A stretch of DNA of 64,000 bases from Blastocystis sp. Blastoise (Eukaryota; Protista; Bigyra: Opalinata), in contig JBBPEB010000011.1 in the NCBI GenBank assembly GCA_039096225.1, forward strand, positions 496,001 to 560,000. The letters run 5' to 3'. Of the stretch, positions 23,886 to 64,000 are shown piece by piece. Numbering within the stretch: position 1 is the first letter of the stretch; every line of letters starts with the position of its first letter. The notes below the pieces were generated by a model. That model ran no database searches. It saw only the letters and a list, made by a program, of their open reading frames with translations, and was not told the DNA's origin. The position numbers and the translations under genes were made by a program.

Positions 23886-27900
<4,015 letters not shown>

Positions 27901-35888: not shown

Positions 35889-36239
35889 ATGTCTATCATT
35901 ATTATACTTATTATTATACTTATTATTATTGTCATCATTATCTTCTTTATCTAGTTATTACTCCTGCTATCCTCCTACTACAGTCACTTGTTTACATTGT
36001 TTATTAATGATGACTTCTATGAGACGTTATCTCTTTGTTAAACCTGAATCTCGTTTAGAATTCTTAAAATTATTAATTGAAGAGGTTTTTGAACAATTAA
36101 CTCGTAGTCATGCATTTGATGATAAAGATACTTATCATATGTTCTGTCAATTATTATGAAAACTTAAAGTATATAGATATATTTATTATTATTATTATTA
36201 ATGTATTATATGAATTCTATATACGAATATATTATACTA

Positions 36240-36288
<49 letters not shown>

Positions 36289-37634
36289 CTATTTCTTTAG
36301 GCTAATTTCCAGTTATCAGAACTTTTCAGAACTCCACGATATAGTGAATTTATTCGTCTTTTAACAAATTTTACTATTGATTCCTTTAAGAATTGGCAAT
36401 GGTGTAGTAATTCTTTTAGTTATTTACTTACTTTATGGAGTTGACTGATTTGTGCTGAACGTTATGTTCAGATCGGTTCAGATATTGATAATACAAGTTG
36501 TTTTAATGAATCTGTTCATCAATTAATACAAGCATATATTAATGGTAAAATGGAAAGTGTAGATGATTATGTTGATGATGATATGAATAACCCTCTTAGT
36601 GATACAGAAAGCTTAGCCATAGAAATGCAACAATTACCTCAAATAGTCAGATATTTTTTTAAGTGAATACTACATATATATGTAACTGCTTTGATCCTCT
36701 TAATGAAGAATATAATGTATATAGTATTATTATAATAATCTCTTTTTTTGTTTATATTTGCATTTAAATATACGTTTATATTTATATTCATTATTATATT
36801 TATTACTTCTATTCTCGTGTATTTCTAGACCCTTCTTTATCAATTTTCTAAAGTATGAGTAAATACTACAGATTATCAAGAATTGGCGAATAAAACAATT
36901 ATTGAGCAATATATATATTCTTAAACAATTATTTATAGGCTGTCTTTCGTGGTTTTGTAATACTGTTGTTACTGTTTTTATTAATCAAGTATTCAGCAAA
37001 CACAGGTTCAAAATAACTATCATTAATAGGTACAGAAGTTATTCAACTTAAACATAATGCTAGTTATTGACTTAACGTAAATATATATAAACTATATTAT
37101 AATATGTTATTATATATTATTATATATATTATTATATATTATTACATTTGTTTTTGCTTTCGTTTTTACAGTATATATATATATGTATAAATATATATAT
37201 ATAGAATTGATTTAGTAGGATTAATTCCAACATGGAATTATCATTAAATTTTCTTTGAACAATTCAGAAATATAGATATATATATGAGAATAAGAAGCGT
37301 CTTCCTGATGATACCTTTCTTGATATGAATTCCTCTCGAAAAGAGCAATTATATATATTTATTGGCTATGTATTAATAGATAGAAATTAAATATATATAT
37401 AAATAATTTATCAATATTGCATTGATGATTTATCTTATTTTTTGTCTAGATGTAAGAAGAGTAATATATTAAATCACTTAATCGATGTAATTTTGAATAA
37501 CCTTCGTTATTGGGAAGATAATACAGTGATTATTAAAAATTGCTTAGATATATTCCTTAATCTCTGTAATGATCATGCCTGCTCTCAATTACTATTAGAT
37601 ATATCAACTACTCAATATCCACTTGAAACATATA

Positions 37635-37636
<2 letters not shown>
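35889..37636 (+). pseudogene. XPO7: Captured exportin-7 fragment (copy in A2)
   Basis: Mirror of 13523-15273 with the same stops. Confidence 0.85.
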
Positions 37637-37670
<34 letters not shown>

Positions 37671-37937
37671 TTATTATTACAAGCGTTACACAGAAATATT
37701 TATTTACATTCTATAGATTCTGCTTTTCATAATTTTATTTCTCACTTCTAGATTTTATGATATTATAATAAGAATAAAAAGAATCATGTAAAGAAAATAA
37801 TAAGAATATAAGTATGAGTGCCTTATAGGTACTAATTATAATAATAATATATTATCTTATAATAATGATAAGAATTATATTAATGTTATAACTAAGAAGA
37901 ATAATATGAATGATGAAATTAACTTTTTTGGCGATAA

Positions 37938-40579
37938 TAATAGTATTATTACTTCCTTATAATACTATTACTTATACTATTATTATTACTACTACTTCCT
38001 TATAATATTATTACTTACCTATAAAATTATTACTACTACTTCCTTATAATATTATTACTTCCTTATAATATTATTACTTACCTATAATATTATTACTTAC
38101 CTATAATATTATTACTATTTACCTATAATATTATTACTTACCTATAATATTATTACTATTTACCTATAATAATATTACTTACCTATAATATTATTACTTA
38201 CCTGTAATATTATTACTTACCTGTAATATTATTACTTACCTATAATAATATTAATACTACTTCCTTATAATATTATTACTTTCCTATAATACTATTATTA
38301 CTTACCTATAATAATATTACTTACCTATAATATTATTACAACTTCTTTATAATAATATTGTAATTGCTTCCTTATTACTACTACTTCCTTATAATATTAT
38401 TACTTTCCTATAATAATATTACTACTTACTTATAATAATATTATTACTACTTACTTATGATAATACTAATTCCTTATAATATTATTACTTCCTTATATTA
38501 TTACTACTTACTTATGATAATATTAATTCCTCATAATATTATTACTTCCTCATATTATTATTACTTCTTTATAATATTATTACTTCCTTATAATGTTACT
38601 ACTTACTTATAATATTATTACTTTCCTATAATAATATTACTTACTTATAATAATATAACTTATAATGTTAGTACTTATAGTATTATTACTTCCTTATAAT
38701 ATTATTACTTACTTATAATACTATTACTTCCTTATAATATTATTACTTACTTATAATATTATTACTTACTTATAATAATATAACTTATAATGTTAGTACT
38801 TATAATACTATTACTTCCTCATAATACTATTACTTCCTCATAATATTATTACTTACTTATAATAATATAACTTATAATGTTAGTACTTATAATACTATTA
38901 CTTCCTTATAATACTATTACTTCCTCATAATACTATTACTTCTTTATAATATTATTACTACTTACTTATAATATTATTACTTACTTATAATATTATTACT
39001 TCCTTATAATATTATTACTTCTTTATAATATTATAACTTATAATGTTAGTACTTATAATATTATTACTACTTACTTATAATATTATTACTTCCTTATAAT
39101 ATTATTACTTCCTTATAATACTATTACTTCCTTATAATACTATTACTTCTTTATAATACTATTACTTCCTCATAATATTATTATTTCCTTATAATATTAT
39201 TACTTCTTTATAATATTATTACTACTTACTTATAATATTATTACTTCATTATAATATTATTACTTCCTCATAATACTATTACTTCCTTATAATACTATTA
39301 CTTCCTCATAATACTATTACTTCCTCATAATACTATTACTTTCTTATAATACTATTACTTTCTTATAATACTATTACTTCCTCATAATACTATTACTTCC
39401 TCATAATACTATTACTTCCTTATAATATTATAACTTATAATGTCAGTACTTATAATATTATTACTACTTACTTATAATATTATTACTTCCTCATAATACT
39501 ATTATTTCCTTATAATACTATTACTTCCTTATAATATTATTACTTCTTTATAATATTAATACTTCTTTATAATGTTACTACTTCTTTATAATGTTACTAC
39601 TTCTTTATAATGTTACTACTTCTTTATAATGTTACTACTTACTTATAATATTATTACTTACCTATAATAATATAACTTATAATGTTAGTACTTATGATAA
39701 TATTATTACTTCCTCATAATATTATTACTTCCTTATAATACTATTACTTCCTTATAATACTATTACTTCTTTATAATAAGATTACTTCTTTATAATAATA
39801 TTACTTCTTTATGATATTATTACTTCATTATAATACTATTACTTCCTTATAATACTATGACTTCTTTACAATACTATTACTTCCTCATAATATTATTACT
39901 TCCTTATAATAATATTATTACTACTTACTTATATTATTATTACTTCCTTATAATACTATTACTTCCTTATAATATTATTACATCTATATAATACTATTAC
40001 TTCATTATAATATTATTACTTACTTATAATAATATTATTACTACTTACTTATAATAATATTAATTCCTTATAATATTATTACTTCCTTATAATATTATTA
40101 CTTCATTATAATATGACTTCCTTATAATACTATGACTTCATTATAATAATATAACTTATAATGTTACCATTTACTTATAATAATATTATTACTACTTACT
40201 TATAATATTACTTCATTACAATATTATTACTTCATTTTAATAATATAACTTATAATGTTACTACTTACTTATAATAATAATATTACTACTTCATTATAAT
40301 ATTACTTACTTATAATTTAACTACTTACTTATAATATTATTACTTCCTTATAATGTAACTACTTCCTTATAATAATATTACTTCTGTACAATACTATTAC
40401 TTCTTTACAATACTTTTATTTCTTTATGATACTATTACTTCTTTATAATACTATTACTTCTTTATAATACTATTACTTCTTTATAATACTATTACTTCTT
40501 TATGATACTATTACTTCTTTATGATAATATTACTTCTTTATGATACTATTATTACTACATCCTTAAATATTATTACTTC
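37938..40579. repeat. 19-bp minisatellite inside A2
   Basis: Reverse complement of 10580-13221. Confidence 0.9.
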
Positions 40580-42880
40580 CATATATTACTGCTGTATATT
40601 ACAGTTATTAATAACAAAAACAAAAGTCATATCAAGTGTATTAACAATAAGAATAATAATAAAGCATGAAGAAGAATGAATGCTATATTAAGAATCAGTA
40701 ATTTGGATGCAAATACTAAGATACTAAGATTATAAATAATAGTACATATACTAATACTAATAAAGAATCAATAATATTAATAGTCTTCTCTATATAACAA
40801 TCAGAAGATCATGAAGTATAATAGTATTACTAGTATAAGCCTTTTTATTCTAACAACTGATTATATTTTCATCGTAATACAAATATTTCTTCAAAATAAT
40901 CTTCCTCTTGTTAGAACATACCCATACTGTTATGTCTCCTTGTATTTTTATATAATAAGCTGATGATGACACTACTACTATTACTAAACTCCTACAATTT
41001 TCTTCTTGTTTTCGTTATAATACGCATGCTCATAATAATTATAAGAATTCTTAAATATAATAGAAATATTTTGTGCTACTACTACCGTTATTATTATGTC
41101 TAGTTGTAATGATATTAAAGATATTTTATATGTGTCATGTCTTTTTACATTCTTATTCCAATAATACTATATCTAATACTAATGATATTCTGCTACTTAA
41201 ACTATTATACACCAAATCCTTTTTCTGTCTATTGCTTCTAATATTGTTAATACTTATATATTTGGAATATACTACTATGCAATACCTTTTATATTTTTCC
41301 TCTTTCTTCTCCTAATACTACGTATAATAGTAGTTATTAATAAGAACAATGATAAGATTATAATTATGTTTTCTATTCTTGTTTTCTAATTTCTCTTACA
41401 TTTTGAATCAATTAAAATATTATGCTATGTCATTAAATGATTGTACCTCCTTTACTAACAGTTTTTAAATTAATTTAAATACCAAAAATGTTATGATATC
41501 AATATGTAATTCGGTTTTCGTAATCATATCTTTAAAGAAAGAATACCATAAGTAATAATACTTGAAGTACTATTACTTTCTTTATAACCTCTACTGATCT
41601 TAGATCATAAATAGTTCTATCACAACTATCAATGAATGTCTATTATTACTACTAATAATACTATAGATTAATGAGATTATAATATAGTATTGCTATGCAG
41701 ATTCTCCTTTTAATTATTTTTTCTTCTATCTCTTTTCTTACTCTCATCATATGACTGTTCATACAAAAATCATATATTACTCATTATGGTTTGCCATTAA
41801 TATTTCATTTATTAGTAACAAAAGATCTACTAATATGGTTATTGAAAATGGTTTAGTAAAATATATAGAAAACATATATTACTGTAATAATTACTTTATG
41901 AATTAATAACAATAAAATAGGATTATATATTAAACATTTAAAAAAATATATGAGAATTTAGAAGATTAAATTAAATAAGTCTATGCTCATTCTATTTTGA
42001 ATAGAACATGTAATAGTTTTTAAATAAGATGCTTTATTATTATGGATAGAAAAATACAATGAAATAAGGATATATTCAGTAAATATGAATGAATTTAGTA
42101 CAAATCAATATAATATATATATTATTCGATATAATATTAGATACTTGAAAAGTTCGATGATTATTGCTTCATATATATAGATTATTGGTGAAAAAAGTTG
42201 TAAATAGATATGAATTTGAACATTTTTTTATGTATTATTTAAAACATTTATTCACTGTAATTTTAACTATTATGAAGTTGAATTAAGTTAGAAAAACCTA
42301 CTATGATCTGCTTTTATGTTATGAAATTCATTAATAACAAGAACAACCAAAAAGTGATTATAAGAGATAATATGTATGAAATTATACATTAAAAATATAA
42401 ATTATAAAAAAGTCAAAGTTTAAATACGATTATACATATAATTTTATAAGTATTTACATGGAAATGTACCCATTCACATGCATGTAGTCTTTTGGTATAA
42501 ATGTTGTATAAGTATAAACATCTTCTGAAGTTACTGTCAACGTAGACCTTTGGATAGTCTTTTCTTTGGTTTGTTTTTCCTATATAAAGAAGAATAAAGT
42601 ATAGAAACAATAAAAGATATTATTTGACAAAATTTTTTATAGTTAATAATATATAAATAATTAGTATTAAGAATATATATATGCATATAAAGATGAAGGT
42701 AATCATTCTGATAATTAAATATATATAAAAGTAAAATGAATTCATTATAATAATTATTATATTAGTAATTAAAAGATTTATCTACACAATGAAATATAAA
42801 AAATGATACTAAATAACTATTACTAATATACATACGATGTATTTATTATGATACTAATATGAATATATTATTATTTATTA

Positions 42881-45800
42881 TTAATTAATATAAGTATATA
42901 CTTCACAAAGAATGTCATCAGGGGTTTTATTTGTATGTATATCCATTACTAAAACGTTTGAAGCAAGAAATATGTTAATATTTTGGAATCCTTGAAACCC
43001 TTGACTGTCCATAAAGTGATAATATAATCCTGTTGCAGATGATAATGCTGGACCATAATCGTAATTCATTACAAATATGGAATCATTCACCTTTATATAT
43101 TTTAAGGCCTTTACAAGATGTGGCTGATGATTATTTTCTTTTTCATAATATATCAAGTATGAATTATCTATTCTATGTACACCATCATCAACTTGGCTGG
43201 TTGTATATATAAGTTTGTTATTAACAAGGATTCTATCATAGAAACTAACAGATAGTTTATTATAATTATCCTTCAACTGATGAAAATTATTTTCTATAAA
43301 TAAGTTTAAATTATAATTTCTATTTTCTCCTGTCCAACCAATAATACCATCTATTAGATAATTAATAAGTGTTTGAGATCCTTCTTCAAGAATTATTTTG
43401 AGAAACTGGAAAAGTACTTTATCTGGCATCTCTATCGGTTCAGAATAATGAGAACAACTAGCAGAATATATATATGTTTTATTGTTTCCAACAGGATTAT
43501 AGTAAATAGTATTCTTATCATGTTGCATATCTTCACATGGTTGAGATATATTACTTATTTCGTTTCTGTTATTGGATCTTCCTTGATGATCATTAGATAC
43601 TAAAATTGTTTCTTTGGTTATTGATGACATGCAGCAGGAAATATTAAATTCATTGCGAGAATGAGATGAGTGCTTAATTTTAGAATAATATGATTCTGAT
43701 TTCCAAGTTGATGTTACTGATAAGCTTCCTGTATTTCTTAAACATGAGACCAAGTGCTGGATAGAATGTATTTGAGATGTAATTAATTGCTTTGGCAGTA
43801 TAAGCTCACAGAGAAATGTGAATGTAAAACATTTCTTTTCAAGCATTTCCAAGTCTTCGATATCATTCGCTTTATATATATGGCAATCATGAATAATAGA
43901 AGCTAATAATTCGAAAAGAGGTATTATAGGACTGTCTTTTGAATTAAAATCATATAATATTAATGGTAATATTTTAGAAACGAAAAATATTTTCGTGTGT
44001 GTATTTATTTTGTTGAACATTGTTTCATCTAGTATATAACGAAACTGGTATTCACAATCCCCATATATACTATTAACTGCTGAGATACGTGTTTCCAAAA
44101 TGCTTTTATTTGTTGGGTTTAGTTCAAATGGTTTCCTCTGGTTTTCTTTAGTATTATCATTTTCTTTTTCATTTGAGGATGTCTTTTTATTCGATTGATC
44201 TTCCTTCATATTACTTACATTACTATCTTCCTTCATATTACTATCTTCCTTCATATTACTTTCATTACTATCTTCCTTCATATTACATTTATTACTATCT
44301 TTCTTCTTCTTACCTTTATTACTATTTTTCCTCTTCTTACCTTTATTACTTTCTTTCTTCTTCTTACTTTTATTACTTTCTTCCTTCTTCTTACTTTTAT
44401 TTTTATTTTCCTTCTTGAATCCAAATAATAAACTTAATAAAGTATTACAAACATTTCCAAAAAGATGCATAGTATCTAATGGAAATGATGTTGAAGGATT
44501 AAAGTAGCTAAGTTGTTCAGAAGTACTTCTTACCTTTTTTATTCCTTTATTGTAGGATGGATTATCATTATTACTACTTCTTATTTCAGTAATTACTTCT
44601 TTAGAATATGGATTGTATCTAATATTAGTAAATGAATCTTCATATAACTTACAACTCTTCGAAAAGGATTTGTACATGATATATGGTTTACTATTTATAT
44701 AAGTATTCGTTTTATTAATCCATTTAAGAAGAAACTGATAACATGGAATATATATATGGACTCCAGTATTCGACTTTTGAACTGATATAGATACATGAGA
44801 ATAGGAACACTTCATACCTTCATGTAATAGTTCAGCATGCTTATCGCTTTGCATATCGCAAAATCTACAAGGATATGTAGATGATGGACCTAAAAATTTA
44901 CCTACATGAGATAATGCTGCAGAATCTCCAAATGTATTAATTAATATGCCAACTACTTTCCTATTCTGTAATCTCCCATCAAGATAAATATCCATGTTTA
45001 TTCCAGCTTGGAGTAACTTGAATTCAGCCATCAGTATATCAAGGCATAAGTCAATAGAAGGCTCATCTACGCAAGTATACATATAGAACTCTCTTTTATC
45101 GTACTTTCTAAATTTCTTATAATTTAATAATTGGATCAAAATTGGGTTTGAAGAACTATTCTGCTTAGTAACAGCCTTATCAAACATCGATATACCGTCT
45201 GTAGTAACGTTGAATGATAAAATGATATCACCATTATTGGCACAATCTCTAAGATATGATTTATAATTCATTCCTAGCATGTAATTTGGTATATTTTGAA
45301 TCATTGAATCTAGGTTACTATTATTAAGACTACTATATATTTGTTCTATCTCATCTTTTCGATAAAATTCAATATCTTGTATATAATATGGAGATGAAAG
45401 TATGGCTTGAAGTCGGGGAATTAGTGGAATAATAACTTGTTTGTTACCTATATAAGAATTATATAATGTTTTGTGATATATATATATATATATATAACTA
45501 CTTCTAGAAATATATACATATATTTCCGTTGCATATAGGATTACTACATGTTATATCTTTAAATAATGGATATGCTTGTATTGTATTATATGTATGTATT
45601 ACATGACACTTATTACATGAAAATATATTTATATGAAGAGGCTTATATATAGAATTTCTAACATATTTTCTTACAATATTTTGTGAGCATTTGGGTATTG
45701 TTAATATAGGAAGATCAATGTCAAATTCGCTTATTAAATTATTTATTAATTCATACAAATTTGCTACTTTTTGAAAGCTAATACCTAGTTTTCTCCAACA

Positions 45801-46132
45801 CTCAAAAATTAGGTCATTCATGGCATCCTCTTTTGTACTCACTTTCTCATGAATTATCTAGATAAAATGATTAGTAGGTATTGTGTTGAAGAAATATAAT
45901 AATGGCTTATATTAAAAGAGAGGTATATATTATATATATATTAATATAAACCGTATACTTTTTGTGATAAGATGAGTTGCATGATCTGCCTTATAATATC
46001 ACCATTTTCTATCTCAATTGGTGTATTCTCATTATTTAAAGAAATATTCACATTGTTGATTTCATCTGCAATCAAGGTAGTTGATCTATGATAAGTGTCA
46101 TGTCTCTCAGATAATAATGTTGCTATGATCAT
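42881..46132 (-). CDS. CACTA transposase (copy A2), 3 exons
   Basis: The 807-aa main ORF and upstream exon ORFs are identical to A1. Confidence 0.9.
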
Positions 46133-46329
46133 TAATGTTATTTCTTATTTTTATATCTTACTATTTATTCCTGATTTCTTCTTATTAGATATCTTATGTC
46201 TATAATTATTCATTATAACAAATACTATGAAAAATGTTTATTAAAAAAAATAAAATTCATTTCTTCTGTAGAATTTTACTGATTATTATCACGGTTTTCA
46301 TATATATTTTTTCTTTTACTTTCTTTTTC

Positions 46330-47116
46330 ATGGAATCATCTACTTTATCTTCATTAGAAAGAAATAAAATTGATAGTCTTCAAGAAGATATCTATAAAGC
46401 TATCGAACATTATTTTAACGAATTAAAAGGTGAAGAGACAAATGGTATTTCAATTTAATTCTTTGGTAATAATTATTTAGAAAAGACTATTCGTTGCTCA
46501 GATGTTTTTATAGAATGTGAGGCTATGATAAGAAGACTTTCCATTAAAAGAGATATTCCATTTAGAAACAAGAAGTTGAATTCAAATAAATTAAAAGTAT
46601 TTATTGTATACATATATAATGTTTAATTCAATAGACTATAATAAAGGTAATTCCTTTTTGCTTACCTGAAGCTATACGAAAAAATGCAAAATCCATGTTT
46701 ACATTAAAAAAGAATAATATATGTTTAGATCATGAGTCAGAGGTCTACATATATATTTGTCGTCTTGCTCGTCTTTATTTGCATACATATGAGAAACAAG
46801 ATAATTATAGTGATGAAATTATAATGGTTTGTGTTCGTGAATGTATTACTAATCGTCGTCGAAAAGGCTCGTTTCCTCAATTCTTTGGGTTTCATTTAGA
46901 TAGAGAAATAGAAATACATGACTCAGGATCCTCTGAGATTGTATGCTTTTATACGTTTCTTTTATCATTCTTTTATATAATATTCTTTATTTTTAGTTTG
47001 GCAAATGGATTCCAATTAGTCCTTTTCCAAATACAAGTTCTTATACATATATACATTATGAAACAATAATAAACAATTTGCAGAAATGCCAAGAGATTCT
47101 ACCATTCTCAGGATAA
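46330..47116 (+). CDS. Second transposon gene (copy A2); exons 46330-46444, 46481-46596, 46635-46940, 46997-47116
   Basis: In-frame splicing gives 218 aa. Confidence 0.65.
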
Positions 47117-49759
47117 ATCTTTGAATTATTCTATTTTTCTTTATTCCTTTATTCTATTTCATAATGATTGGCTATTTATCTTCTACACTATAATTCTTTT
47201 GATTTATATTAAAATGATTGGCTAAGTATTTTTAATAGAATATATTTTTATGCTGACTTTATTTTTTGTTTTACACCATACATTCATATTTTATTTTATT
47301 GCTTTGTTTATCTCACAACAAAAATATCAATGAACATATTCAATAACTATACTCTTTGAAAATGTATTTTACTTTTAAACAGTATTAAAGTATTATTGTG
47401 TCTAGGTGTCTATCAATTTTCGAATCAATTATCTTGTTAATGTATATAATGTTGTAAAATATCATAACATCTTTTTATATAGAATGTCAGGTGTTTGATT
47501 ATTCAAGGGTAGCAAGTATTTTGTTTCGTATTTCTATAATTCTTTGTTACTATTATTTAATTAACTATCAATATCCCTTTCTTTAGTTGCTTCATATAAA
47601 TTGTAACGTGCATTGAAATGACAGCTATCTTTAACGATGTGAATTAGGTATGTATAACTATTTATTGATTTGAATAATTCTAACTTATTTTTTTTATATA
47701 GAGTATTTATAGACAGAAGTAATTACCACCAGTAGATAGATTTAAAAAAATGTTTTAATGTTATTTCACAATTAGAATTTATTTACAATTTACTCGTTTT
47801 GTTTTCTAATTTTTGTTATAATGGTTAAAGCCATAGTTGCGTATAGAGTAGTTTATGAAAATAACAAAGATAAATTTAAATCATTAAATAGTTTTTAAAT
47901 TAATTATTCAAAGAGCGACCAAAAATAATCATCGTGTATATACTAAAAATCTTCATTGGGTTTTTTTATGCTTTTTGTTGTTTATTCTGTGGAGGGTATT
48001 TTTTTTCCTTGTTTAATTGTTCTGAAAAAATCTTAAATCCAAAAAGCAAAACGTGACAAAGAAGGCCATTTTTATTCATGGAAATCGCTGATAGTGATGA
48101 TTTGAAATAATTATAAATATTCTTTATTAATTATTCACTATCAGGTATTTCCGTGATACTTTTTGGAGAGTTTTGCCAAAAAATGACTAAATTACTTTTT
48201 AAGACTATTTTCAGTCAGGCGAAAAGAGTAGCCAAAAACTAGGTTATTTTTGTCGAATATGGTCTTTCTTTTCATTCGTTCAGAATTCTTTTAGAAACGT
48301 CATTTTATTATTAATTTAATCGTTGTGTGAATGATAATCAATATATATATATAACAAAAGACAATAAATAATATATAATAATTAAAATAGCAAGAAAGAT
48401 AAGAAAATAATAATTATTTTGATTTGTTTTGATAAATTGGCAACTGTATCTGAGGACTATATATATAAATTGATAGAACTAATAATAATATAGATAATAT
48501 AGAATACATACCTTCTAACATCACTTCTAGACCAACTCTTGAACAAGAACCAAAACTATAAAAATAGAATGTAAAAAAATAAATATATTATAACAATATA
48601 CCTTCTAAATCCTAGCAGTGTAGACCAAAAGGGACACCAGAGAGTACCTAGAACCTATAAAAAATTAAATTAGTTAATTTCAAAAAAATAAAATATAATT
48701 AAATACCTTCAGAAGCATTGATTTGTTGACCAAGGAGACCTGAGACAATAGTTGAACCTATATAAGATAATAAATAATAATAGCAGAGAGAATGCTAAAA
48801 AATATATACCTTTAATACAACCAGATTTCTATACGTTCAGGCCCGGAAACTCATAAACTAACTTTAAAAAAGAAGACCAATTAGGACCTATTAGAATCTA
48901 TTTTGACACACCAGTAAGCCTATATAGAATAAGATAAATAAAAAAAATATAATATACATTTAATAATATATAAAATATAGTTGTAAATTAAAGAAAAATA
49001 AAAATAAATATGTGAAAAAGTTGAATCTTATAAACAAAGAGAAATTCCCCCTTACAATTTTTTTTTTGTATAATAAAATTCTTTACAAAATCTGGGTTTC
49101 CAGGGGTTAAAACATTTTAAAAATTTCCCTTTTTCTCTAATAAAAAGTCTATTTGAATATAAAAATGATTTATAAATGTAATATGTGTTTATGAACCTAA
49201 ATTATTTAATTACAACATGTTTAAGACTTATTAGAACAAAAATATAGTTATTTAAAAAATCTTTAATTACAATTAAATATATTTGTCTGCTATTTTTATA
49301 TAATAGTATTTTATTTATAACAAGAAGGTCCTAGATAATCAAGAGAAATATTTAGTATAATCACTTATAGAGACATGATTCAAAAATTTATAAACTTTTG
49401 TTTCTAATATGATTTATTTCAACAATTTATCGATTATTGTAGATGTATAAATAGAACGAGAATGTTTGAAAGCTTTGTGAGTTGTTTAAGACATAATAAA
49501 GAATGTAATTTATTAAAGTATAAAGTAGATTAATATTTACTCTTTTTTCTATTATTCCAAAAGAATTCTATAAATAATTTTATTCCTAAATATCAACAAA
49601 ACAAATAGAGTAATATATAAAGAAATAAAACAAAATAAAAGATAGATAAAAAAGATAATATATAGTATATATATAGTAATATATCATTATAATATATATA
49701 ATATGAATAATTTATTAAACTCCTTTCTATTCTATATATACATGATTATAAAACCATAT

Positions 49760-55060
<5,301 letters not shown>

Positions 55061-55465
55061 AAAATGAATTCATGTATAAATCCAAACTTATGAGTCAAAA
55101 TATAAAAATTTTCATAAATATATTAGTTTTTATTATTATTATTATTTTATGATAGTTTATTATAATTATAACTTCTCACACGTCAATTACAACTTTATTC
55201 ATACAATAACTATGTATTCCACTAATTTCAACTTTAAAAACATAACTCATTTTCTTTGACCCTCTGATGTGTTTGTATGCTCGTCCAAAAACTATAAATT
55301 CTTATTTCAACAATCTATCCATTGCATAATTAACTATAAAAACAACTTTTTAAAAGAATTTTATTTGATTCTGAAAAAAAAACTGTTTTTTATGACTTTT
55401 GACAAACTTTTTGGATGAGGACTTTTGAGTCGTGATAGAGTCAATTGAAAAATTCTTTTTAAAAC

Positions 55466-55582
55466 ATTCTTCGCACAAACCCAGGCGGCCAAGATATGGC
55501 CGACATCCCTATACTGCGAAGTTCTACGAACTTCGCTAGCATAGGGATGTTGCCCATATTTGTGTGGGTTTGTGCGAAGAAT
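55466..55582. repeat. GC-rich imperfect palindrome (117-bp terminal hairpin)
   Basis: ATTCTTCGCACAAACCCA / TGGGTTTGTGCGAAGAAT (18 bp perfect), ACATCCCTAT / ATAGGGATGT, and apex GCGAAGTTC-TAC-GAACTTCGC. Confidence 0.95.
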
Positions 55583-55670
55583 TACTAATTCTTATCATAT
55601 AGAAAAATCAAGGGAATAAAGAAAAATACACTATAAAATATATTTTTCACATAAATAACTATTTTAAACA

Positions 55671-56342
55671 ATTTGATTGGTTAAATCAGTGATGACGCAC
55701 CCTCTGTCATCCATTTTTACTTTTCTAACTTTTTATATATTCTATTTACTTACTTACTACTTTATAAAAAAAATGAATAAGTAAGTACGTAACCCCATAT
55801 ATACAAAAGTTTATTTTGACAAAAAAAGAAGCCAGTTCGGAATCATTTGATTGGATGAATCTTGGAACACAATTTATCATCCAATAAAAATTATGTGTTC
55901 CAAAAAGATGAAATTTGATTGGTTAAATCAGTGATGACGCACCCTCTGTCATCCATTTTTACTTTTCTAACTTTTTGTATATTCTATTTACTTACTTACT
56001 ACTTTATAAAAAAAATGAATAAGTAAGTACGTAACCCCATATATACAAAAGTTTATTTTTGACAAAAAAAAGAGCCAGTTCGGAATCATTTGATTGGATG
56101 AATCTTGGAACACAATTTATCATCCAATAAAAATTATGTGTTCCAAAAAGATGAAATTTGATTGGTTAAATCAGTGATGACGCACCCTCTGTCATCCATT
56201 TTTACTTTTCTAACTTTTTGTATATTCTATTTACTTACTTACTACTTTATAAAAAAAATGAATAAGTAAGTACGTAACCCCATATATACAAAAGTTTATT
56301 TTTGACAAAAAAAAGAGCCAGTTCGGAATCATTTGATTGGTT
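55671..56342. repeat. Subterminal tandem repeat, ~2.8 x 242-243 bp
   Basis: Units start ATTTGATTGGTTAAATCAGTGATGACGCACCC at 55671, 55913 and 56156; near-identical. Confidence 0.95.
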
Positions 56343-56526
56343 GAACGAAATGTTGTTCTTTAAAATATTTCAAATCAAAAAATGAATTTGATATCTTTTA
56401 AATTCACCCCTGGATTTTTGTTTCCATTATAAAAATATAATAAATGAAATATACCCCCATTGTTATAATTTTTATATATTTTTTTAATATAAAATATTTC
56501 TCATTTTTATTTTATTTTTGGAAAGA

Positions 56527-56943
56527 ATGAGTGAAGGTGCTTTCAGATTATTGAATTTCAAGGAAAAGTCAAATTAGTAAATATTTAAGATATATATATA
56601 TATATATTAATTATATAGTTCCGTTGAAGAACTTAATCAAATTAAGAAAGATCTTTGTGAATCATTAAGATCTCAATTAATAATGACTAAATTAAGTATT
56701 GATATTATAAAAAGGAATTGTCAACGTACTAAAGGAAACCAGTATTTATTAAGTAAGCAAATGATGAAATACTTTGATAAAGAATATTCTCCAGCAATTA
56801 ATAAAGCTTTAAATTTAATTGAAGAAAGTGATGATAATATTATGAATACAATTAATAAAAATAAAGAAGATTTTATTAATTTTGATAAATGTTTTGATAA
56901 GATGCTTGATTATCAGTCTAGAATATCGAAATATTTTCATTAA
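56527..56943 (+). CDS. Viral hypothetical protein with a 42-nt intron (56577-56618), ~124 aa
   Basis: MSEGAFRLLNFKEKSN(Y)SVEELNQ... joins in frame to ORF 56683..56943 after removing GTAAAT..TATAG. Confidence 0.65.
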
Positions 56944-57125
56944 AAATATTGAATTCCTATTAGTAGTTTTTTGTTTATTTTTTTAAATTTTTAAACCACT
57001 AAAATCGAATATTCTTTTTTAATATCTAAAAAAGAATAATTAGAACTGACTCTATTTAAAAATATATTTTAATAATTTCACATAATTTATTTATTTTTTA
57101 ATTTTTTAAAAGTGGATATTTACGA

Positions 57126-57410
57126 ATGGATAAGGAAATTAATAACACCCAGGATGTATGTAAAGATGTTGAAATGGATTCAGATCATCCTAAAACACCT
57201 AAGAAGCCCCGCCAACCCCGTGCAGTCTCAATAATTAAACGTAAAGGTGAAGATATTCAAGTTATTCCTGATTATTTACTGGTTTTCCTTAAGAATTTTA
57301 AAGTTATGCTTGATGATCTGCTAATGAATGATATGACCCAACGTCAGAAAATTGATGAATTATTTGAAAATGATGAATCATCAAATTCTAAAAGAAAAAG
57401 AACTGCTTAA
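57126..57410 (+). CDS. Viral hypothetical protein (94 aa, NLS-like KRKR)
   Basis: Clean ORF with coding-like composition. Confidence 0.6.
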   Translation: MDKEINNTQDVCKDVEMDSDHPKTPKKPRQPRAVSIIKRKGEDIQVIPDYLLVFLKNFKVMLDDLLMNDMTQRQKIDELFENDESSNSKRKRTA

Positions 57411-57685
57411 TTTGTCTTAAAATTATCATTAATTAATAAAATTTTGTTTTGTTTTCTTTAAAACTGTTGGATAAATATCTTTAAGCCCATAATACACAAC
57501 TCTATTAATTTTTTATAATAAAATGTAATTTAACCCCTGGATAATAACATTCCAGCCCCTGGATTGTTTCTCTATTATTTTTTAATAATAAACTTTCAAT
57601 ACCCCCTGGATCACTAAAAACGAAATCTTTTTTATTTTATTATAAATTTATTTTCATATTTATTTTTATTTATTTGGTGAAAAAA

Positions 57686-57922
57686 ATGAAATTTTCGTTA
57701 CAACACGATTTGATGACTGCTTGCTTAAATATTAAAAGATTGCAGCGTATGATTACAAAGATGCAGGAGGAAATAGATGATATGGTTGATACTATTGATA
57801 GAATTAATGATACTGTTCTAGAAGATTATTTAGAATTAACTGATGAAGATGATGATATTGAAGATCCTCCAAAATCACCAAGAAGTCCTCGAAGTATGGT
57901 CGAAAAAATCTTAAAATTTTAA
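57686..57922 (+). CDS. Viral hypothetical acidic coiled-coil protein
   Basis: ORF 57674..57922; first ATG at 57686. Confidence 0.55.
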   Translation: MKFSLQHDLMTACLNIKRLQRMITKMQEEIDDMVDTIDRINDTVLEDYLELTDEDDDIEDPPKSPRSPRSMVEKILKF

Positions 57923-58022
57923 TTCATCTGCTTTTTATTTTTATCATATGAGTTTTAAATATATTCAGTTTTGTTTTGTTTTGTTTCTAAAACTTCACAT
58001 AATTATTTTATTCTGATAAAAA

Positions 58023-58958
58023 ATGAGAAATAAAAATTTTGATGCCATTAAGTTAGCAATAATCAAAAGTACCTATTGTGCTGGAAGTAAACGTAAATTT
58101 GCTATTATTATAGAAAAATATATTGAATATTTGCCTTGGGAAAAATTTAAGCAATTCTTGGAAAATCCTTATGCTTTTGCTGATGAATTGGTGAATAAGA
58201 AGTTTATTAAGATTCATGAACTACTGAAATTATCTGAATTAATCTTATATTTAATAAAGGTAAAACACTTTGAATCTAATTTTTGTGAAGATATTCATAA
58301 TGATTGGTTAGAATTTAAAGATATTATTAAGAGTGCTTATGAACAATCCCTTCGTGAAAAGAAATCTGCTAGAATAGAAAATCTTCGAAAAGAATATCCA
58401 AATATAGAATCATTAGAATGTAAACGTGATGAATTAGATAAAGATGATATACTTAGAATTATTATTGATTTATATATATTATGTCCTCCTCAACGTGCTG
58501 ATTATGGTATATGTTCTATTCAAACACCAGAAACTGTAACTAATAAAATGAGAAATTATATCATTTTTGATAAGAATAATGAAACTGCTGAAATTCATCT
58601 GAAAGATTATAAGACTTCATATAAATATGAAGAAATTATAATTAAGAATAATGATAAGTTATATGAAGATATGAACTATATGTTAGAAAAAGAACCTGGT
58701 AGAGTGTTTATATTTGAAAAGACTCCTGGTAAACCATTTTGTGATGTTAAAGATTATGATAGATATATTAATAATCATTTACGTAGATTACATCCAGAAT
58801 TAACTATTAATGGTTGTCGTTTCTATTATGCTACTACAAATTGTACTTCTTTTTCTTCTTTAAGAGATGATTCTGATAGATTAGCTCATACTAAAAGAAC
58901 TCATATTGGCAGTTATGTCTCTTTTACTCAAAGTGATTTATATAAAAAATTAATTTAA
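58023..58958 (+). CDS. Tyrosine recombinase/integrase (Polinton-like-virus type)
   Basis: PPQRADY (R), DYKT (K), TINGCR (HxxR variant), LAHT (H), HIGSY (Y) in canonical order. Confidence 0.85.
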   Translation: MRNKNFDAIKLAIIKSTYCAGSKRKFAIIIEKYIEYLPWEKFKQFLENPYAFADELVNKKFIKIHELLKLSELILYLIKVKHFESNFCEDIHNDWLEFKDIIKSAYEQSLREKKSARIENLRKEYPNIESLECKRDELDKDDILRIIIDLYILCPPQRADYGICSIQTPETVTNKMRNYIIFDKNNETAEIHLKDYKTSYKYEEIIIKNNDKLYEDMNYMLEKEPGRVFIFEKTPGKPFCDVKDYDRYINNHLRRLHPELTINGCRFYYATTNCTSFSSLRDDSDRLAHTKRTHIGSYVSFTQSDLYKKLI

Positions 58959-59045
58959 TTATTATTTGTTTATTTAAAAAAAAGTTGTTTAGTTTTAAAA
59001 AAATTATTTTATTATAACAAAACACAATAATTATAAAAACATATA

Positions 59046-59531
59046 TTAATGACAATTATTATTAGAGAATAAATTAATAGGATTAGGAGAAAAATTATAA
59101 TTATTTAAGACTTCATTAGTAGACGGCAAGGAGTAGAAATCTTCATGATTTTGTATATCTTTTGGAATAGGGATATTAACTTGTTTTTCAAGTTGTGTAG
59201 ATAAATGAGGCATCGTTTCAGAATTAACAGGATTTGAGATAGGAGACGTGACATTGATTTGATTTTTTTCTTTGTTTCTTGAGTGTTCTTCAATTTCATA
59301 GTATAAATTATCTAAAGTATTTTCTAAATATTGTTTTTGTTCAGGATTAGAAATATAAATGATTAAATTTCTAATAGAATCTAATTCTCTCTTTTGTATT
59401 GGACGAGTATGAAAATTAAGAAATTGTTCAATCAATTTAAAGAAATCATTTCCTTTACATTTACATGCATCTAATTGCAGACTTTTAATATTTTTTGAGA
59501 ATGTTGGCCACGGTAGAGGTTGACGATACAT
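59046..59531 (-). CDS. Viral hypothetical protein (161 aa)
   Basis: Clean ORF co-oriented with the protease and core genes. Confidence 0.6.
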   Translation of the reverse strand: MYRQPLPWPTFSKNIKSLQLDACKCKGNDFFKLIEQFLNFHTRPIQKRELDSIRNLIIYISNPEQKQYLENTLDNLYYEIEEHSRNKEKNQINVTSPISNPVNSETMPHLSTQLEKQVNIPIPKDIQNHEDFYSLPSTNEVLNNYNFSPNPINLFSNNNCH

Positions 59532-59600
59532 ATTAATTAAAAAATAAATAATTATGATTAATGTTTTAATCTAATAAAATATATTCGTTTTTATATTCGT

Positions 59601-60197
59601 TTATGTAGGTATGATGGTACCTAAACTAGTTAAATATAATAATGCATAATAGAAACATCCATTAGAGTTTGAAGCAGTACTTTGGAATTGAATAGGGTTG
59701 TATTGAATATTATGTGTCTTAATAAATTGTGGAGAAAATTCTGGAGAATTCCCAAGACTGGAATAGAATTTCATATGTTCTGGACTTTCATAGATAACAG
59801 CTTCAAAATGACCGAAATTAGGGTCATCTTCAGATTGATGAAATAACATATTAAAGTTAGATTTTATATTATCAATATTATGTTCAAAATCATTTAAATT
59901 ATCCCAATATTTCCATGAACCTTTACATTGTGTATTCAGATTTTTCATTGTAGAATCTGCTATATCACATGCAACAGGGTCACATGGATTATTTAAATAT
60001 CCATATTTATATATTTTTGAAATTAAGTTTCTATTAATTATACCAGATAATTGAGCCAATGATTTAGCTATACTATCCAGAGGTTTAGGCTGACTAGATA
60101 ATTGTTTATCAGAATAAATTTTTGTATTACAATTTAATTTATCTTGAATAATATCTTCATCAGGGCTCACTTTTAAACCTCTGGTTGGTAGTTTTTT
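59601..60197 (-). CDS. Adenain-like (clan CE) maturation cysteine protease, no ATG at its 5' end
   Basis: GHFEAV (His), FYSSLG (cf. YFDSFG), IQYNPIQFQ (oxyanion Gln), GCFYYAL (Cys). The frame stays open upstream through the A7 run of the core ORF. Asp and Cys spacing is non-canonical. Confidence 0.7.
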   Translation of the reverse strand, partial: KKLPTRGLKVSPDEDIIQDKLNCNTKIYSDKQLSSQPKPLDSIAKSLAQLSGIINRNLISKIYKYGYLNNPCDPVACDIADSTMKNLNTQCKGSWKYWDNLNDFEHNIDNIKSNFNMLFHQSEDDPNFGHFEAVIYESPEHMKFYSSLGNSPEFSPQFIKTHNIQYNPIQFQSTASNSNGCFYYALLYLTSLGTIIPT

Positions 60198-61291
60198 TGT
60201 AATCCAGCTCCTTCACCACAACCATTTTGTTGACATTGTCGTTTAGCAGCTTTACATTTTTGCATATATTCATAAAAGGCACGACCACGTAATTTTCTTG
60301 GTTTTTTCAATCCAGAAGCATTATTAGGTTGCATTGCTTCTGCTAATGCTCTTTTCTTTGCTTCTATTTCTTGTTCTTGATAAACATTATCTACATTATT
60401 ATCTAATTTATTATTTTCATTGGCTTTTCTCCAAAATTCAGGTGTGAATATTTTACCAATTGCACGTGGAATTGCTGCAATATTATTTCCTAAATTCGTG
60501 ACACCATCTTTTATTGCATTTGGATTAGTTGCTAATCCTTCAAATGCTTTTGAAGCCGCACCAATACCAGCCAACATTGTAAGGAATCCACCACCTTCTT
60601 TCCAAAATTTTCCACCACGACGTACAGTACATCCGTTACCACTTGAATCACCTGAAAAATTAATATAAGAACACAATTGTCTTTTTGAGGGTCTTTTAAT
60701 ACCACATCCAACTTTATTTAACCCTTTACCACCTAAATTCATGGTACTTGCTATACTTCTTATAATTGAAGGTGGAATTAGCATTCCAGCACGAATTCTA
60801 TGTTTTGACCATTTCTTATAATCTTTCATAGCTTCTTGAGAATAGCCAGCTGCTTTTAATACACCTTGACCAATTGAATTATATAATTTTGACATTTCTG
60901 CTTTATTAAAAGCTAATCCATTTCCATTTTTAGGTTCTAAAGCATCTGATTCTGAAATTACTTTTTTATTTGTAATTCCACGTCCATTTCTTTGAATACC
61001 TATTCTTGTAACTGGATTAGCAACAACCAATGAACCACCAGAATCACCATTATTATCACCAAACATTTTATCTCGATTAACATAATTATCAACATTACCA
61101 TTATTTACTTTTTGTGTTTTTAATTGTCTTGTCTTTGCAACACTATTTTCAGGTATTGCTACCATTAATGGATTATGCCTTTCAGCATTATTTAATGGTT
61201 GTGTAATATAATTTCTATTTTCTTTTCCATGTCCTAAATGAATAATACCTTTATCACCTGGACTTGGATATTTTAATATAGTTTGTTCCAT
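60173..61291 (-). CDS. Basic Gly-rich virion core protein precursor with repeated GxG/GG cleavage-like motifs
   Basis: SGGSL, NGRGI, NGNGL, GGKGL, VGCGI, SGNGC, EGGGFL, GAGL; GGFLTMLAGIGAA resembles the adenovirus pX/mu GG[F/I]L amphipathic segment. Likely start MEQTIL at 61291. Confidence 0.65.
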   Translation of the reverse strand: MEQTILKYPSPGDKGIIHLGHGKENRNYITQPLNNAERHNPLMVAIPENSVAKTRQLKTQKVNNGNVDNYVNRDKMFGDNNGDSGGSLVVANPVTRIGIQRNGRGITNKKVISESDALEPKNGNGLAFNKAEMSKLYNSIGQGVLKAAGYSQEAMKDYKKWSKHRIRAGMLIPPSIIRSIASTMNLGGKGLNKVGCGIKRPSKRQLCSYINFSGDSSGNGCTVRRGGKFWKEGGGFLTMLAGIGAASKAFEGLATNPNAIKDGVTNLGNNIAAIPRAIGKIFTPEFWRKANENNKLDNNVDNVYQEQEIEAKKRALAEAMQPNNASGLKKPRKLRGRAFYEYMQKCKAAKRQCQQNGCGEGAGLQKNYQPEV

Positions 61292-61325
61292 ATATATATA
61301 ATAAAAAATAAATAAAAAATAAATA

Positions 61326-62126
61326 TTAAGCAATTTTAATTGTTACATCTGAATATTCATCATAATTTTTAATATTAAATTTATTCTTACGAATATATCG
61401 TAAAACCTCTTTATAATATACATTATTTCGACCTAATTCAACAAGCATATTCTCATTATCAGATAAGTATATATGTAATGTTTCAGGAGCAGACTTTAAA
61501 TAGTTTATTAACTTATTGTTATCAAATATTATAGGTATATATTTATCATACATATTCATATAGGGTGGGTCCATATAAATAATACCATTTTGTATATTTT
61601 TAAGTAAATCATGATAATAATCACCACAAATAAATGAAACAGGCTGAATTAATTCTGAAATTTCTTTCAAATCATTTTCAGTATAAATAATAGGATTAGT
61701 ATAATTACCATAACCAACATTAAATTTTCCTTCACGATTTATTCTCCATACACCATGATAACATGTTTTATTTAAATACAGAAATAATGCAGCACGTTCT
61801 ATAGAATCTTTACTTTCATTAAATATTGTTCTATATTTATAATAATGTTCACAATCTATTTTATCATGAATATTTTTTAAATAATCAACAATAAGTCTAT
61901 AATCTAATTGGAGTATTTTCCAAAAATTAATTAAATCTGAACACATATCACATGCAAAATATTTTCGAGTAATATTATTAGTTTTATCAAATTTTAATAC
62001 ATTAATTAATATTGTTCCACCACCTAAGAATGGTTCATAATAATCTAAATTATTATTAAATCGTTCTTTAATAACAAAATCAGAAACAATATAATCTTTA
62101 TTTCCAACCCATTTTAATAATGGCAT
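61326..62126 (-). CDS. dam: Dam-family (D12 class) N6-adenine DNA methyltransferase
   Basis: LKWVGNK, EPFLGGG, FLYLNKTCYHGVWRINREGKFNV, YMDPPY. Confidence 0.92.
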   Translation of the reverse strand: MPLLKWVGNKDYIVSDFVIKERFNNNLDYYEPFLGGGTILINVLKFDKTNNITRKYFACDMCSDLINFWKILQLDYRLIVDYLKNIHDKIDCEHYYKYRTIFNESKDSIERAALFLYLNKTCYHGVWRINREGKFNVGYGNYTNPIIYTENDLKEISELIQPVSFICGDYYHDLLKNIQNGIIYMDPPYMNMYDKYIPIIFDNNKLINYLKSAPETLHIYLSDNENMLVELGRNNVYYKEVLRYIRKNKFNIKNYDEYSDVTIKIA

Positions 62127-62264
62127 TTTATTTTAAGTTATTAAATTAATTATTTATGTCATTTAAATAATTTTTAGAAACAAAACACATAAAAAATATA
62201 AAATAATTAATAATTTAACAATATAAGAAAATAAGAAAAATATATAGAAATAATTATATAATAA

Positions 62265-63044
62265 TTAATCATCAATTTCATTAACAGGAACAATATAATC
62301 AAGAGAACTACCAAGTATCTTTAATTGTTTAAGACCACGTGTAATATACCATTCTTTATCATAATATTTAACTCTATCTAATTTCATAATAGCAATAGCA
62401 CTATCCAAGGCAGAAATGTATTGAGTACAATTCGAAGTATTAATGATTGGATTATAATGATTATTAATAAGCTTACCATCTTTATCATATAAATCAAAAG
62501 CCAATTGATTTCTAGTATTCTTAAAGATTTTTATACTTACAATATTCATTGGATATTTTTGCCAAGTCTTCTGTTGAGTAATAGCATGCATAGGAACAGA
62601 TTCATTACCAAGTTCTTTATCTAAATTCAATTTTAACTTACCTCTTTCATCATTAACGCTATCAGGAACATGTATCTTTTCAAATATCTTATGGCTAACA
62701 TCAACTCTAATGGCTTCCAATAACTTTACAAAATCTTTGTTTTCAGTACCTAAAGAACAAACTAAATACTTACTATTAGAATTACCAAAATCACTAAATT
62801 CATAAAGAACAACACATGTAGGAGTTTTGATTTGAAGAATCTTTCCATTATATCTTATCTTATATCCATCTTGACGACCAAGAGCAAGGTTTCTATTGGG
62901 TTCATCAGTTTCTTTATCGAGAGTAACAGTTAGTAAATCATTATTATAATCACTTAATTTAGATATTGTACAGCATTCTTCATGTAAATGACCAACAGCA
63001 GCAGCTTGGAACAAAGTACTAGATATAGGGGAAATATCAGACAT
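62265..63044 (-). CDS. Putative OB-fold ssDNA-binding protein (viral SSB-like)
   Basis: LQIKTP..FG..YLVCSL..F..LLEAI pattern, beta-rich C-terminus, acidic tail, adjacent to the primase. Assignment by pattern only. Confidence 0.5.
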   Translation of the reverse strand: MSDISPISSTLFQAAAVGHLHEECCTISKLSDYNNDLLTVTLDKETDEPNRNLALGRQDGYKIRYNGKILQIKTPTCVVLYEFSDFGNSNSKYLVCSLGTENKDFVKLLEAIRVDVSHKIFEKIHVPDSVNDERGKLKLNLDKELGNESVPMHAITQQKTWQKYPMNIVSIKIFKNTRNQLAFDLYDKDGKLINNHYNPIINTSNCTQYISALDSAIAIMKLDRVKYYDKEWYITRGLKQLKILGSSLDYIVPVNEIDD

Positions 63045-63110
63045 TTTTTAAATTAAAAAAAAAATTAAAAAATAAAATAAATATGAATTTAATAATAAAA
63101 TAAAAATAAA

Positions 63111-63320
63111 TAATGAGATACAAATGAGATACAGATGAGATATAAATGAGATACAAATTTATTATGATTGGATAATCTCGTCAGGTTTGATTCTCGATTT
63201 AGGATTTTTCATTTTATTATAAATGTTTTCATTGTTGACTTAGGATTTCGTCAGGTTTGATTCTCGATTTAGGATTTTATTACTTTATTATAAATATTTT
63301 CATTGTCGACTTAGGATTTT
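63111..63320. repeat. Direct repeats in the divergent SSB/primase intergenic region (4 x ~11-bp ATGAGATA; 2 x 70 bp)
   Basis: TCGTCAGGTTTGATTCTCGATTTAGGATTTT at 63178 and 63248. Confidence 0.85.
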
Positions 63321-63370
63321 AGTATTTTATTAATTTTAAATTTTATTTTATATTTCTTTTTATTTTTCTA

Positions 63371-64000
63371 ATGAGTACTGAACCTAAATTATCCTGTGAA
63401 TTTCAAGTATTTAATCAAGTTGATAAAACTAGTTGTCGTGCCGCCAAAATAATTGAGAATCCTGATGAATGGTATAGATCTGTTTTCGAAAGCTACTATA
63501 AACAAAAGATTGGTGAAAATACTGGTTTTGAAGAGCCACTACATTATGTTGACGTTGTTCCAAAGAATTCCGAAGGTTGTTATCGTCGTTTATGGTTTGA
63601 TTTAGATTTTTCAAAAGATACTAATGATTTCTCTATGTTTTCTGATGAAAATGTTAAAGTATTTCTTATTGGTTTATTTGATGTGTGTTGCCACTATTAT
63701 GATACAAATCTAGATGATATTAATGTTGTAATAACAAAAAAAGATGTTAATCAAAAGAAGAATGGATCAGAAATTAATTATTCATGGGGTTGTCATGTCT
63801 TTACAAATTTATTTGTTCTTCCTGATAGTCTTCCATGTTTTTATTCATTATTAATTAATCATTCAAAGATTAAAGAATCATGTGAACTACTTAATGTTAT
63901 TCCAGAAAAATTCATTGATAAAGCTGTAATTGGAAATAGAAGTCGTAATAATGGATGTATGATGCTTGGCTGTTCAAAAAATAATGTACGTTCTACTTAT
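63371..64000 (+). CDS. Archaeo-eukaryotic primase (PrimPol/D5-type N-terminal domain), truncated by the window end; missing from the ORF track
   Basis: 210 open codons from ATG 63371: RLWFDLD (motif I), WGCHVF (II), FIDKAV (III), MLGCSK. Confidence 0.85.
   Translation, partial: MSTEPKLSCEFQVFNQVDKTSCRAAKIIENPDEWYRSVFESYYKQKIGENTGFEEPLHYVDVVPKNSEGCYRRLWFDLDFSKDTNDFSMFSDENVKVFLIGLFDVCCHYYDTNLDDINVVITKKDVNQKKNGSEINYSWGCHVFTNLFVLPDSLPCFYSLLINHSKIKESCELLNVIPEKFIDKAVIGNRSRNNGCMMLGCSKNNVRSTY

Follow-up and report, generated by a model that had tools for sequence, protein, structure and literature searches.

The window analysed here comprises 64,000 nt from Blastocystis sp. Blastoise (contig JBBPEB010000011.1, positions 496,001–560,000 of the forward strand). 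Its right-hand part, from position 55466 to the window end at 64000, is probably the left end of an endogenous Polinton-like (MELD) virus of Blastocystis that is present in several copies; its maturation protease is likely produced in minor amounts, as a core–protease fusion, through programmed −1 ribosomal frameshifting. The frameshift-like junction between the core and protease genes is the most unusual part of this element, which is known from its left 8.5 kb; the window end cuts the primase gene. On a broader reading, towards which the balance tips slightly, a widespread family of Polinton-like viruses (PLVs) in Blastocystis swaps modules, either PolB with an rve integrase or an AEP primase with a tyrosine recombinase (YR), and all of its members set the amount of protease through a conserved −1 frameshift from the core precursor, which would amount to a Gag-Pro arrangement in a eukaryotic double-stranded DNA virus. 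The present branch would then be distinguished by a His-Ser-Cys protease and possibly by YR-mediated integration via a folded hairpin end. The features that form the junction are the following:

59601–60212, minus strand: clan CE (adenain/Ulp1-like) protease frame, 203 codons from stop to stop (ESM Atlas, structure model, alignment)
60173–61291, minus strand: core-like precursor of 372 aa, rich in Gly, Lys and Arg (composition, motifs, homology)
60191–60197, minus strand: slippery heptamer A AAA AAC, matching X XXY YYZ when read in the core frame (frame check)
60161–60183, minus strand: predicted stem-loop 7 nt past the heptamer, containing the core stop codon (RNA fold)

Programmed −1 frameshift signals combine an in-frame X XXY YYZ heptamer, a spacer of 5–9 nt, a downstream structure and an open −1 frame. 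Judged from the sequence, all of these occur together at the core–protease junction, where the protease frame overlaps the final 40 nt of the core open reading frame (ORF) in the −1 frame. The stem-loop folds with z-scores of −2.5 to −2.9, equalled by 1–3 of 200 shuffles in four overlapping windows. The six larger ORFs contain 11 in-frame slippery heptamers, among which only 60191–60197 is followed by a long open −1 frame (196 codons vs. 0–12); it also has the strongest downstream fold (−9.5 vs. −6.8 for the next). The chance of 80 off-frame codons being free of stops is about 2e-5. The first AUG of the protease frame appears only at 59948, some 76–80 codons beyond the slip site, where the conserved part of the protein starts. 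The intact ORFs asserted in a preliminary description of this stretch are thus borne out in that the protease frame is otherwise uninterrupted, but not at its beginning, which has no AUG at the conserved start and is out of frame with the preceding gene. In the NCBI gene models of all three copies of the element, the 0-frame residues QKNYQPE are retained and the break is bridged by an 89-nt model intron, so the break is present in every copy. Sequencing set X1 is uninformative on expression: it contains 0.22 of the words, and its contigs span 17 of 30 bins of 56700–64000 with no joints and with the slip site uncovered.

A search of 1.84 billion representative sequences with the protease yielded four matches, namely the element itself and three relatives of approximately 43–49% identity, which were compared as protein sequences. 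These relatives align from residue 7–14 of the protease frame, within the 89-nt model intron, and share no conserved Met. Among the related proteins, P0011 and P0027 represent a second family in the same host, in which the order core, protease, ORF161 is preserved and the corresponding junction is spanned by model introns that differ from each other. The P0010 cluster has 15 members on 88 metagenome contig records of up to 23,956 nt, and is called as a stand-alone ORF of 115–190 aa even on contigs of 16–24 kb. In P0029, core and protease are fused in one frame. Motif matches L016 and L017 were judged to be due to chance.

Further support for the junction comes from a published virus of the same host genus. 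Starrett et al. described a MELD virus of Blastocystis that has PolB and an rve integrase (excerpts of PMC8502044), and the proteins listed for it as BK012044 include pentons, a packaging ATPase and an Adenain that adjoins a GG-rich hypothetical protein (part of the supplement to PMC11071296). As far as that part shows, its Adenain has the motifs YGYLN and DPNxGH in common with the protease of the element, a likeness seen by eye without a scored alignment, and contains no Met. When the proteins were compared by hand, the first 39 residues of the Adenain proved compatible, codon by codon, with the −1 frame of a DNA stretch whose 0 frame encodes the final 38 residues and the stop codon of the GG-rich protein, and the Lys run in this overlap forces A AAA AAG, again as derived by hand from the protein sequences rather than with a tool. 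The same junction layout thus holds in a distantly related virus whose genes for replication and integration are different, and a conserved programmed −1 frameshift at the core–protease junction is likely on these sequence grounds.

The ESM Atlas assigns the protease as Peptidase_C5-like (0.92–0.94), and a model built from five sequences (pLDDT 68.6; 31.8 for the single-sequence fold) matches clan CE folds throughout. Its matches in the PDB are weak (best E 1.6e-3, Z 6.7), and the best viral match in BFVD is the protease of a MELD virus (E 1.5e-6). Pfam and PDB sequence searches fail to detect the family. His135, Gln177 and Cys186 are invariant in all four sequences and the acid position is occupied by Ser151; the modelled fold, the His-acid-Cys order and the oxyanion Gln thus agree with clan CE, save for Ser in place of the acid. 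The 372-aa ORF comprises 11.6% Gly and 58 Lys and Arg residues, carries nine xGxG/xGG motifs as opposed to 0–1 in each of the nine other ORFs, and is homologous to P0027 (E 4e-25). By inference, it is a core precursor whose xGxG/xGG motifs are candidate cleavage sites.

Several observations weigh against the reading of the element as a virus with a frameshifted protease. The predicted stem-loop is modest (z about −2.8) and no pseudoknot was shown, a splice donor (GTAAAG at 60255) and AAG or GAG acceptors could join the two frames, and some members of the P0010 cluster are called from a Met 13 residues upstream, possibly a genuine start codon. In the protease, Ser stands where the acid is usually found and Phe follows the catalytic Cys, so that its activity is uncertain. 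Furthermore, neither a capsid nor a packaging ATPase gene was found within the 8.5 kb seen.

That the same virus instead joins core and protease by splicing, through the 89-nt NCBI intron or a nearby alternative, is unlikely. NCBI models splice three out of three copies, transcription of such a virus is likely nuclear, donors such as that at 60255 are present, and the introns of tortoise Blastocystis vary in length (excerpts of PMC10690189, which describe isolates of 21–23% GC and a long-read assembly). However, the 89-nt model intron removes residues conserved in all relatives, and the in-frame acceptors that spare these residues are AAG or GAG in four out of four cases, the sole YAG acceptor being one that deletes them. 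The NCBI models also disagree between near-identical copies, as seen for the YR, and within the second family; because they differ between near-identical copies elsewhere, the NCBI introns are regarded as predictor artefacts. Finally, an intron needs no slippery heptamer, yet one is found in both the element and BK012044.

The lack of capsid and ATPase genes in the 8.5 kb seen also bears on what kind of element this is, and would be expected of a capsid-less derivative, transpoviron- or transposon-like, in which the core and protease genes are retained and which is moved by its recombinase. This reading is likewise held improbable, given that a core precursor together with a maturation protease is a trait of virions, that pentons and a packaging ATPase are among the proteins of the related BK012044, and that relatives reside on contigs as long as those of the P0010 cluster. 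The YR is 100% identical to a protein of Blastocystis sp. Blastoise. Its cluster has three members on three contigs, as does the adjoining core–protease model, with consecutive locus tags. These three near-identical copies differ by 1–4 residues per protein, which indicates recent spread, and a second, diverged family of related elements is present in the same tortoise gut protist. The count of genomic copies called for in the preliminary description therefore agrees with its proposal of a recently integrated, endogenous Polinton-like virus in a protist. The second-family element P0027 (WA158_005801) lies 13 locus tags from one copy of the element (WA158_005814–005816) on a single 752-kb contig, possibly as a nested or clustered insertion.

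An independently translated protease, starting at AUG 59948 or at a near-cognate GUG around 60171 with an incidental overlap, is very improbable. The GUG has A at −3 and lies at the beginning of the conserved part, and metagenome relatives are called as stand-alone ORFs. However, a start at 59948 would forfeit about 76 conserved residues, the GUG (Val) is not conserved, the BK012044 protease has no Met, and, unlike the other genes, the protease is not preceded by an AT-rich intergenic spacer. Least probable is the loss of one base in the A-run of a former in-frame fusion, whether by mutation ahead of the spread of the copies or as a sequencing error of long reads, leaving protease-defective copies: a homopolymer occupies this position in an assembly made from long reads and P0029 is an in-frame fusion, but the junction is broken in three copies, the second family (49% identity), a third cluster and BK012044, and the protease frame is otherwise intact.

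With the frameshifted virus as the preferred reading, translation would mostly end at the stop codon of the core gene, with a slip in only a few per cent of ribosomes, so that core precursors would far outnumber protease molecules. The latter may then release themselves at the Gly motif directly before the protease domain (RG in the element; GG in relatives) and would cut the core at its xGxG/xGG motifs within the particle. Integration and excision of the genome at the hairpin end would be carried out by the YR, and the primase, probably a primase-helicase, would replicate it in the nucleus together with a single-stranded DNA-binding protein (SSB) and host polymerases. Genes for capsid, penton and packaging ATPase would lie beyond 64000, as in BK012044, which fits the 24-kb contigs of relatives.

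The left end of the element comprises the following features, none of which is assigned to a strand:

54113–55465: host flank (non-viral), a repeat-family member split by the insertion (paralogue alignment; edge ± about 5 nt)
55466–55582: terminal branched hairpin of 117 nt, with an outer stem of 19–20 bp and two inner arms (DNA fold)
55670–56345: tandem repeat with units of 242, 243 and a partial 191 bp, 97–99% identical (window self-comparison)

The host flank matches positions 23472–24860 of the window (69% identity over 1422 columns), and this match stops at 55465, directly past TTTTAAAAC. The left edge is thereby set without recourse to viral genes, as the host paralogue aligns to 55465 and diverges beyond. 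The hairpin has 49% GC in a host genome of approximately 22% GC, folds at −47.5 kcal/mol (z −10.7; equalled by 0 of 200 shuffles) and ranks strongest in a 120-nt fold scan over the whole window. The hairpin end of the preliminary description is thus upheld, with an edge supported independently by the host paralogue; it may be an origin, a site that folds for recombination or what is left of a closed end. The tandem repeat is likely part of a terminal inverted repeat. TTTTAAAAC is common to both host repeats (54113–55465 and 23472–24860), and the element is inserted right behind it, possibly reflecting a target preference. The host part of the window has approximately 22% GC and is rich in microsatellites (3.2% of bases vs. 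0.2% in the element). No viral remnants were found in positions 1–55465, and Rfam gave no match anywhere in the window. In PMC10690189, "virus" and "viral" occur once each, and viral insertions are not discussed in the excerpts used here.

Ten ORFs occupy 83% of positions 56683–64000. Apart from the core–protease pair, the genes and repeats of this part are:

56683–56943, plus strand: ORF of 86 aa, no Pfam match (ORF list)
57126–57410, plus strand: ORF of 94 aa with basic motifs, no family above cut-off (ORF list, Pfam)
57686–57922, plus strand: ORF of 78 aa, acidic, coiled-coil-like (ORF list, Pfam)
58023–58958, plus strand: tyrosine recombinase of PLV/giant-virus type (alignment, profile search)
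59046–59531, minus strand: ORF of 161 aa (ORF161; weak homology to the second host family)
61326–62126, minus strand: Dam-like N6-adenine methyltransferase with FLGGG and DPPY motifs (Pfam, PHROG)
62265–63044, minus strand: predicted SSB of the giant-virus DUF5871/DUF2738/Pox I3 class (ESM Atlas structure)
63113–63319, no strand: short direct repeats, 3 × 11 nt and 2 × 34–44 nt, in the spacer from which the SSB and primase genes diverge (repeat search)
63371–64000, plus strand: AEP primase domain of C962R/D5 type, N-terminal, open at the window end (Pfam)

The tyrosine recombinase, AEP primase, SSB, Dam methylase and adenain-like protease named in the preliminary description are all found in their places, with support from Pfam, profile searches, the Atlas and the protease model. 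As a single sequence, the YR has no Pfam or PDB match. An IMG/VR motif scan gave 15 loci, seven of which have the motif in frame and were aligned (eight were dropped); with these seven viral relatives, R158, K197, R266 and H289 are invariant and Y298 is the candidate nucleophile. The resulting profile matches XerC-like 4a8e (E 4.5e-5), Tn1549 Int and XerH, and the relative L008 matches Phage_integrase (E 4e-5). The profile matches are all Xer/Int recombinases with no telomere resolvase among them, and a protelomerase is the less likely reading. NCBI models join the 78-aa ORF to the recombinase by differing splices. ORF161 has a weak homologue downstream of the protease in the second host family (BLASTP with P0011: 21% over 150 columns, E 0.002).

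The Dam-like protein matches Pfam MethyltransfD12 (E 1.2e-33) and PHROG 56. In the ESM Atlas, the SSB resembles DUF5871/DUF2738 clusters of Nucleocytoviricota (TM 0.62–0.67 over about 190–210 residues) and has a Pox_I3 feature match; presumably this class comprises T7-like SSBs. Pfam, PDB and phage searches gave no match for the SSB, tblastn against phages found none for SSB or YR queries, and a DUF2738 search in three of five sets was without match, as was its control. The primase domain matches Pfam AEP_C962R (E 5e-7, 30.5 bits, cut-off 23); no longer AEP homologue was found among 252 candidates, which is weak evidence. The direct repeats between the SSB and primase genes are possibly an origin or promoter.

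Several sequence patterns were also noted. TTTGTT lies at most 110 nt past the stop of six of nine viral ORFs (56944–62264) vs. 9.8% of random host windows; it is missing behind the Dam, core and protease stops, and T-rich spacers may account for the pattern. It resembles a downstream element of human Blastocystis subtypes, for which tortoise isolates are reported as unenriched (excerpts of PMC10690189). GATC occurs eight times in 55466–64000 vs. 19 expected (host: 83 vs. 101), despite the Dam-like gene. CCCCTGGA, a candidate promoter or recombinase-binding motif, occurs four times in the intergenic left arm (56407–57603) and twice in the other 55 kb.

In the host part of the window, positions 3063–16683 and 34479–48096 form an inverted duplication of 13.6 kb with 99.98% identity, which is either very recent or an assembly artefact. 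It carries an intronless ORF of 889 codons (5609–8278 and 42881–45550), transposase-like by eye and with no Pfam match, and a degenerate tandem array of 2.6 kb (10569–13222 and 37937–40590) with an extreme GC skew of 0.8. The diverged host repeat family (69–72%) comprises 54113–55465, 23472–24860, 22920–23448 and 16143–16683, all of whose conserved frames contain stops. A host gene at 19875–22034 encodes a TLDc domain (Pfam E 2.4e-11) in addition to a coiled-coil repeat.

Programmed frameshifting is characteristic of RNA viruses, of retroelements and of phages with tails. If it operates here, the Gag-Pro way of setting the protease dose would have arisen a further time, in relatives of adenoviruses by capsid lineage, which would also account for gene finders mis-splicing or truncating these proteases. 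The element moreover points to a family of viruses, as yet little known, in the commonest genus of gut protists, and with recent proviruses in a culturable host and 88 metagenome contig records, induction and proteomics are practical. Frameshifting in PLVs was found in print only as a predicted Penton/Hexon case (excerpts of PMC11071296).

In that case, −1 frameshifts were predicted in adintoviruses with KnotInFrame, and only for Penton and Hexon-Adenain (Hexain), as far as the excerpts go (Buck et al., PMC11071296). Hexain would thus likewise arise by a −1 slip that adds adenain to a virion protein. There the partner is the hexon and the evidence a prediction, whereas in the element the partner is core-like and the junction recurs in several lineages, one relative being fused in frame. 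No core–protease frameshift in PLVs was found in a literature search that covered only a minority of subscription papers, and for endogenous viruses of Blastocystis this search yielded only the papers cited here. The arrangement also recalls retroviral Gag-Pro, in which a structural precursor is followed by the protease in the −1 frame, with A AAA AAC and a downstream stem; the retroviral protease is aspartic, however, and the retroviral genome is RNA. Adenovirus AVP and pS273R of African swine fever virus (ASFV) are clan CE proteases that cut after Gly motifs in core precursors, and both are encoded as separate genes. ASFV pS273R is the top VIA row for the protease model (Z 6.7), tied with others.

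As a rule, YRs accompany AEP/PolA replicases (excerpts of 10.64898/2026.10.13.758929), and PLVs, which are endogenous and 15–30 kb long, usually combine a YR with an AEP (excerpts of PMC10120064). Excerpts from further studies describe proteases as core genes in Gosseviruses and group 1 Mavericks (10.64898/2026.06.19.733378), DUF2738 proteins in PLVs of the PgVV group (10.1101/2022.07.28.501842) and virophages with YRs (PMC8547959); those on egoviruses contain no link to Blastocystis (10.1101/2024.03.23.586382). The YR + AEP PLVs of Polisuviricotina (Gezel/PgVV group, VC134, group 2 Mavericks, Gosseviruses and Meld19810) share with the element the YR/AEP pair and a methyltransferase. Some carry a DUF2738 SSB and Gosseviruses carry a protease, like the element, and Meld19810 combines Prim-S2H and Yrec with adintovirus virion genes. 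The texts on these viruses contain no description of a core–protease frameshift.

With regard to Polisuviricotina, the element has a YR and an AEP domain (the primase being cut before any helicase part) and is inserted in host DNA, as evidenced by its junction and by three copies on three contigs. Of the size of 15–40 kb and the terminal inverted repeats expected for this group, only the left end is seen, with its hairpin and repeats, alongside the long contigs of relatives. Membership is likely, although the defining double jelly-roll major capsid protein, penton and A32-like packaging ATPase are not among the genes of the 8.5 kb read, and the element may fall in a cluster of Bellas and Sommaruga. 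The rve integrase and PolB of classic Polintons and adintoviruses are not within these 8.5 kb, which contain YR and AEP instead. Mriyaviruses are defined by an HUH endonuclease and VLTF genes and have no integrases (10.1101/2024.02.29.582850). They resemble the element in having a T7-like SSB (in gamadviruses), an AEP-helicase and no polymerase of their own, whereas HUH and VLTF are not in the part seen and the element has a YR.

The closest described virus is BK012044, one of whose hypothetical proteins, in the part of the supplement available, resembles the SSB of the element by eye. The two differ in that BK012044 has PolB and an rve integrase, as opposed to YR, AEP and Dam in the part seen of the element, and in that its protease has a canonical acid (DSFG) and CG where the protease family of the element has SSLG and CF or CL; its capsid genes are known, whereas the element is read only to 64000. 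In IMG/VR, no close sequence relative emerged from scans with YR, protease, AEP and P0014, nor did one from scans of metagenome (JGI) and GTDB data. The undescribed lineage deduced from YR, AEP, SSB and protease was overstated, as the YR/AEP pair is ordinary, proteases and DUF2738 proteins are known and a related Blastocystis MELD virus has been described. With BK012044, a virus with PolB and an rve integrase, as its closest described relative, the element is therefore a module-swapped variant rather than a new class.

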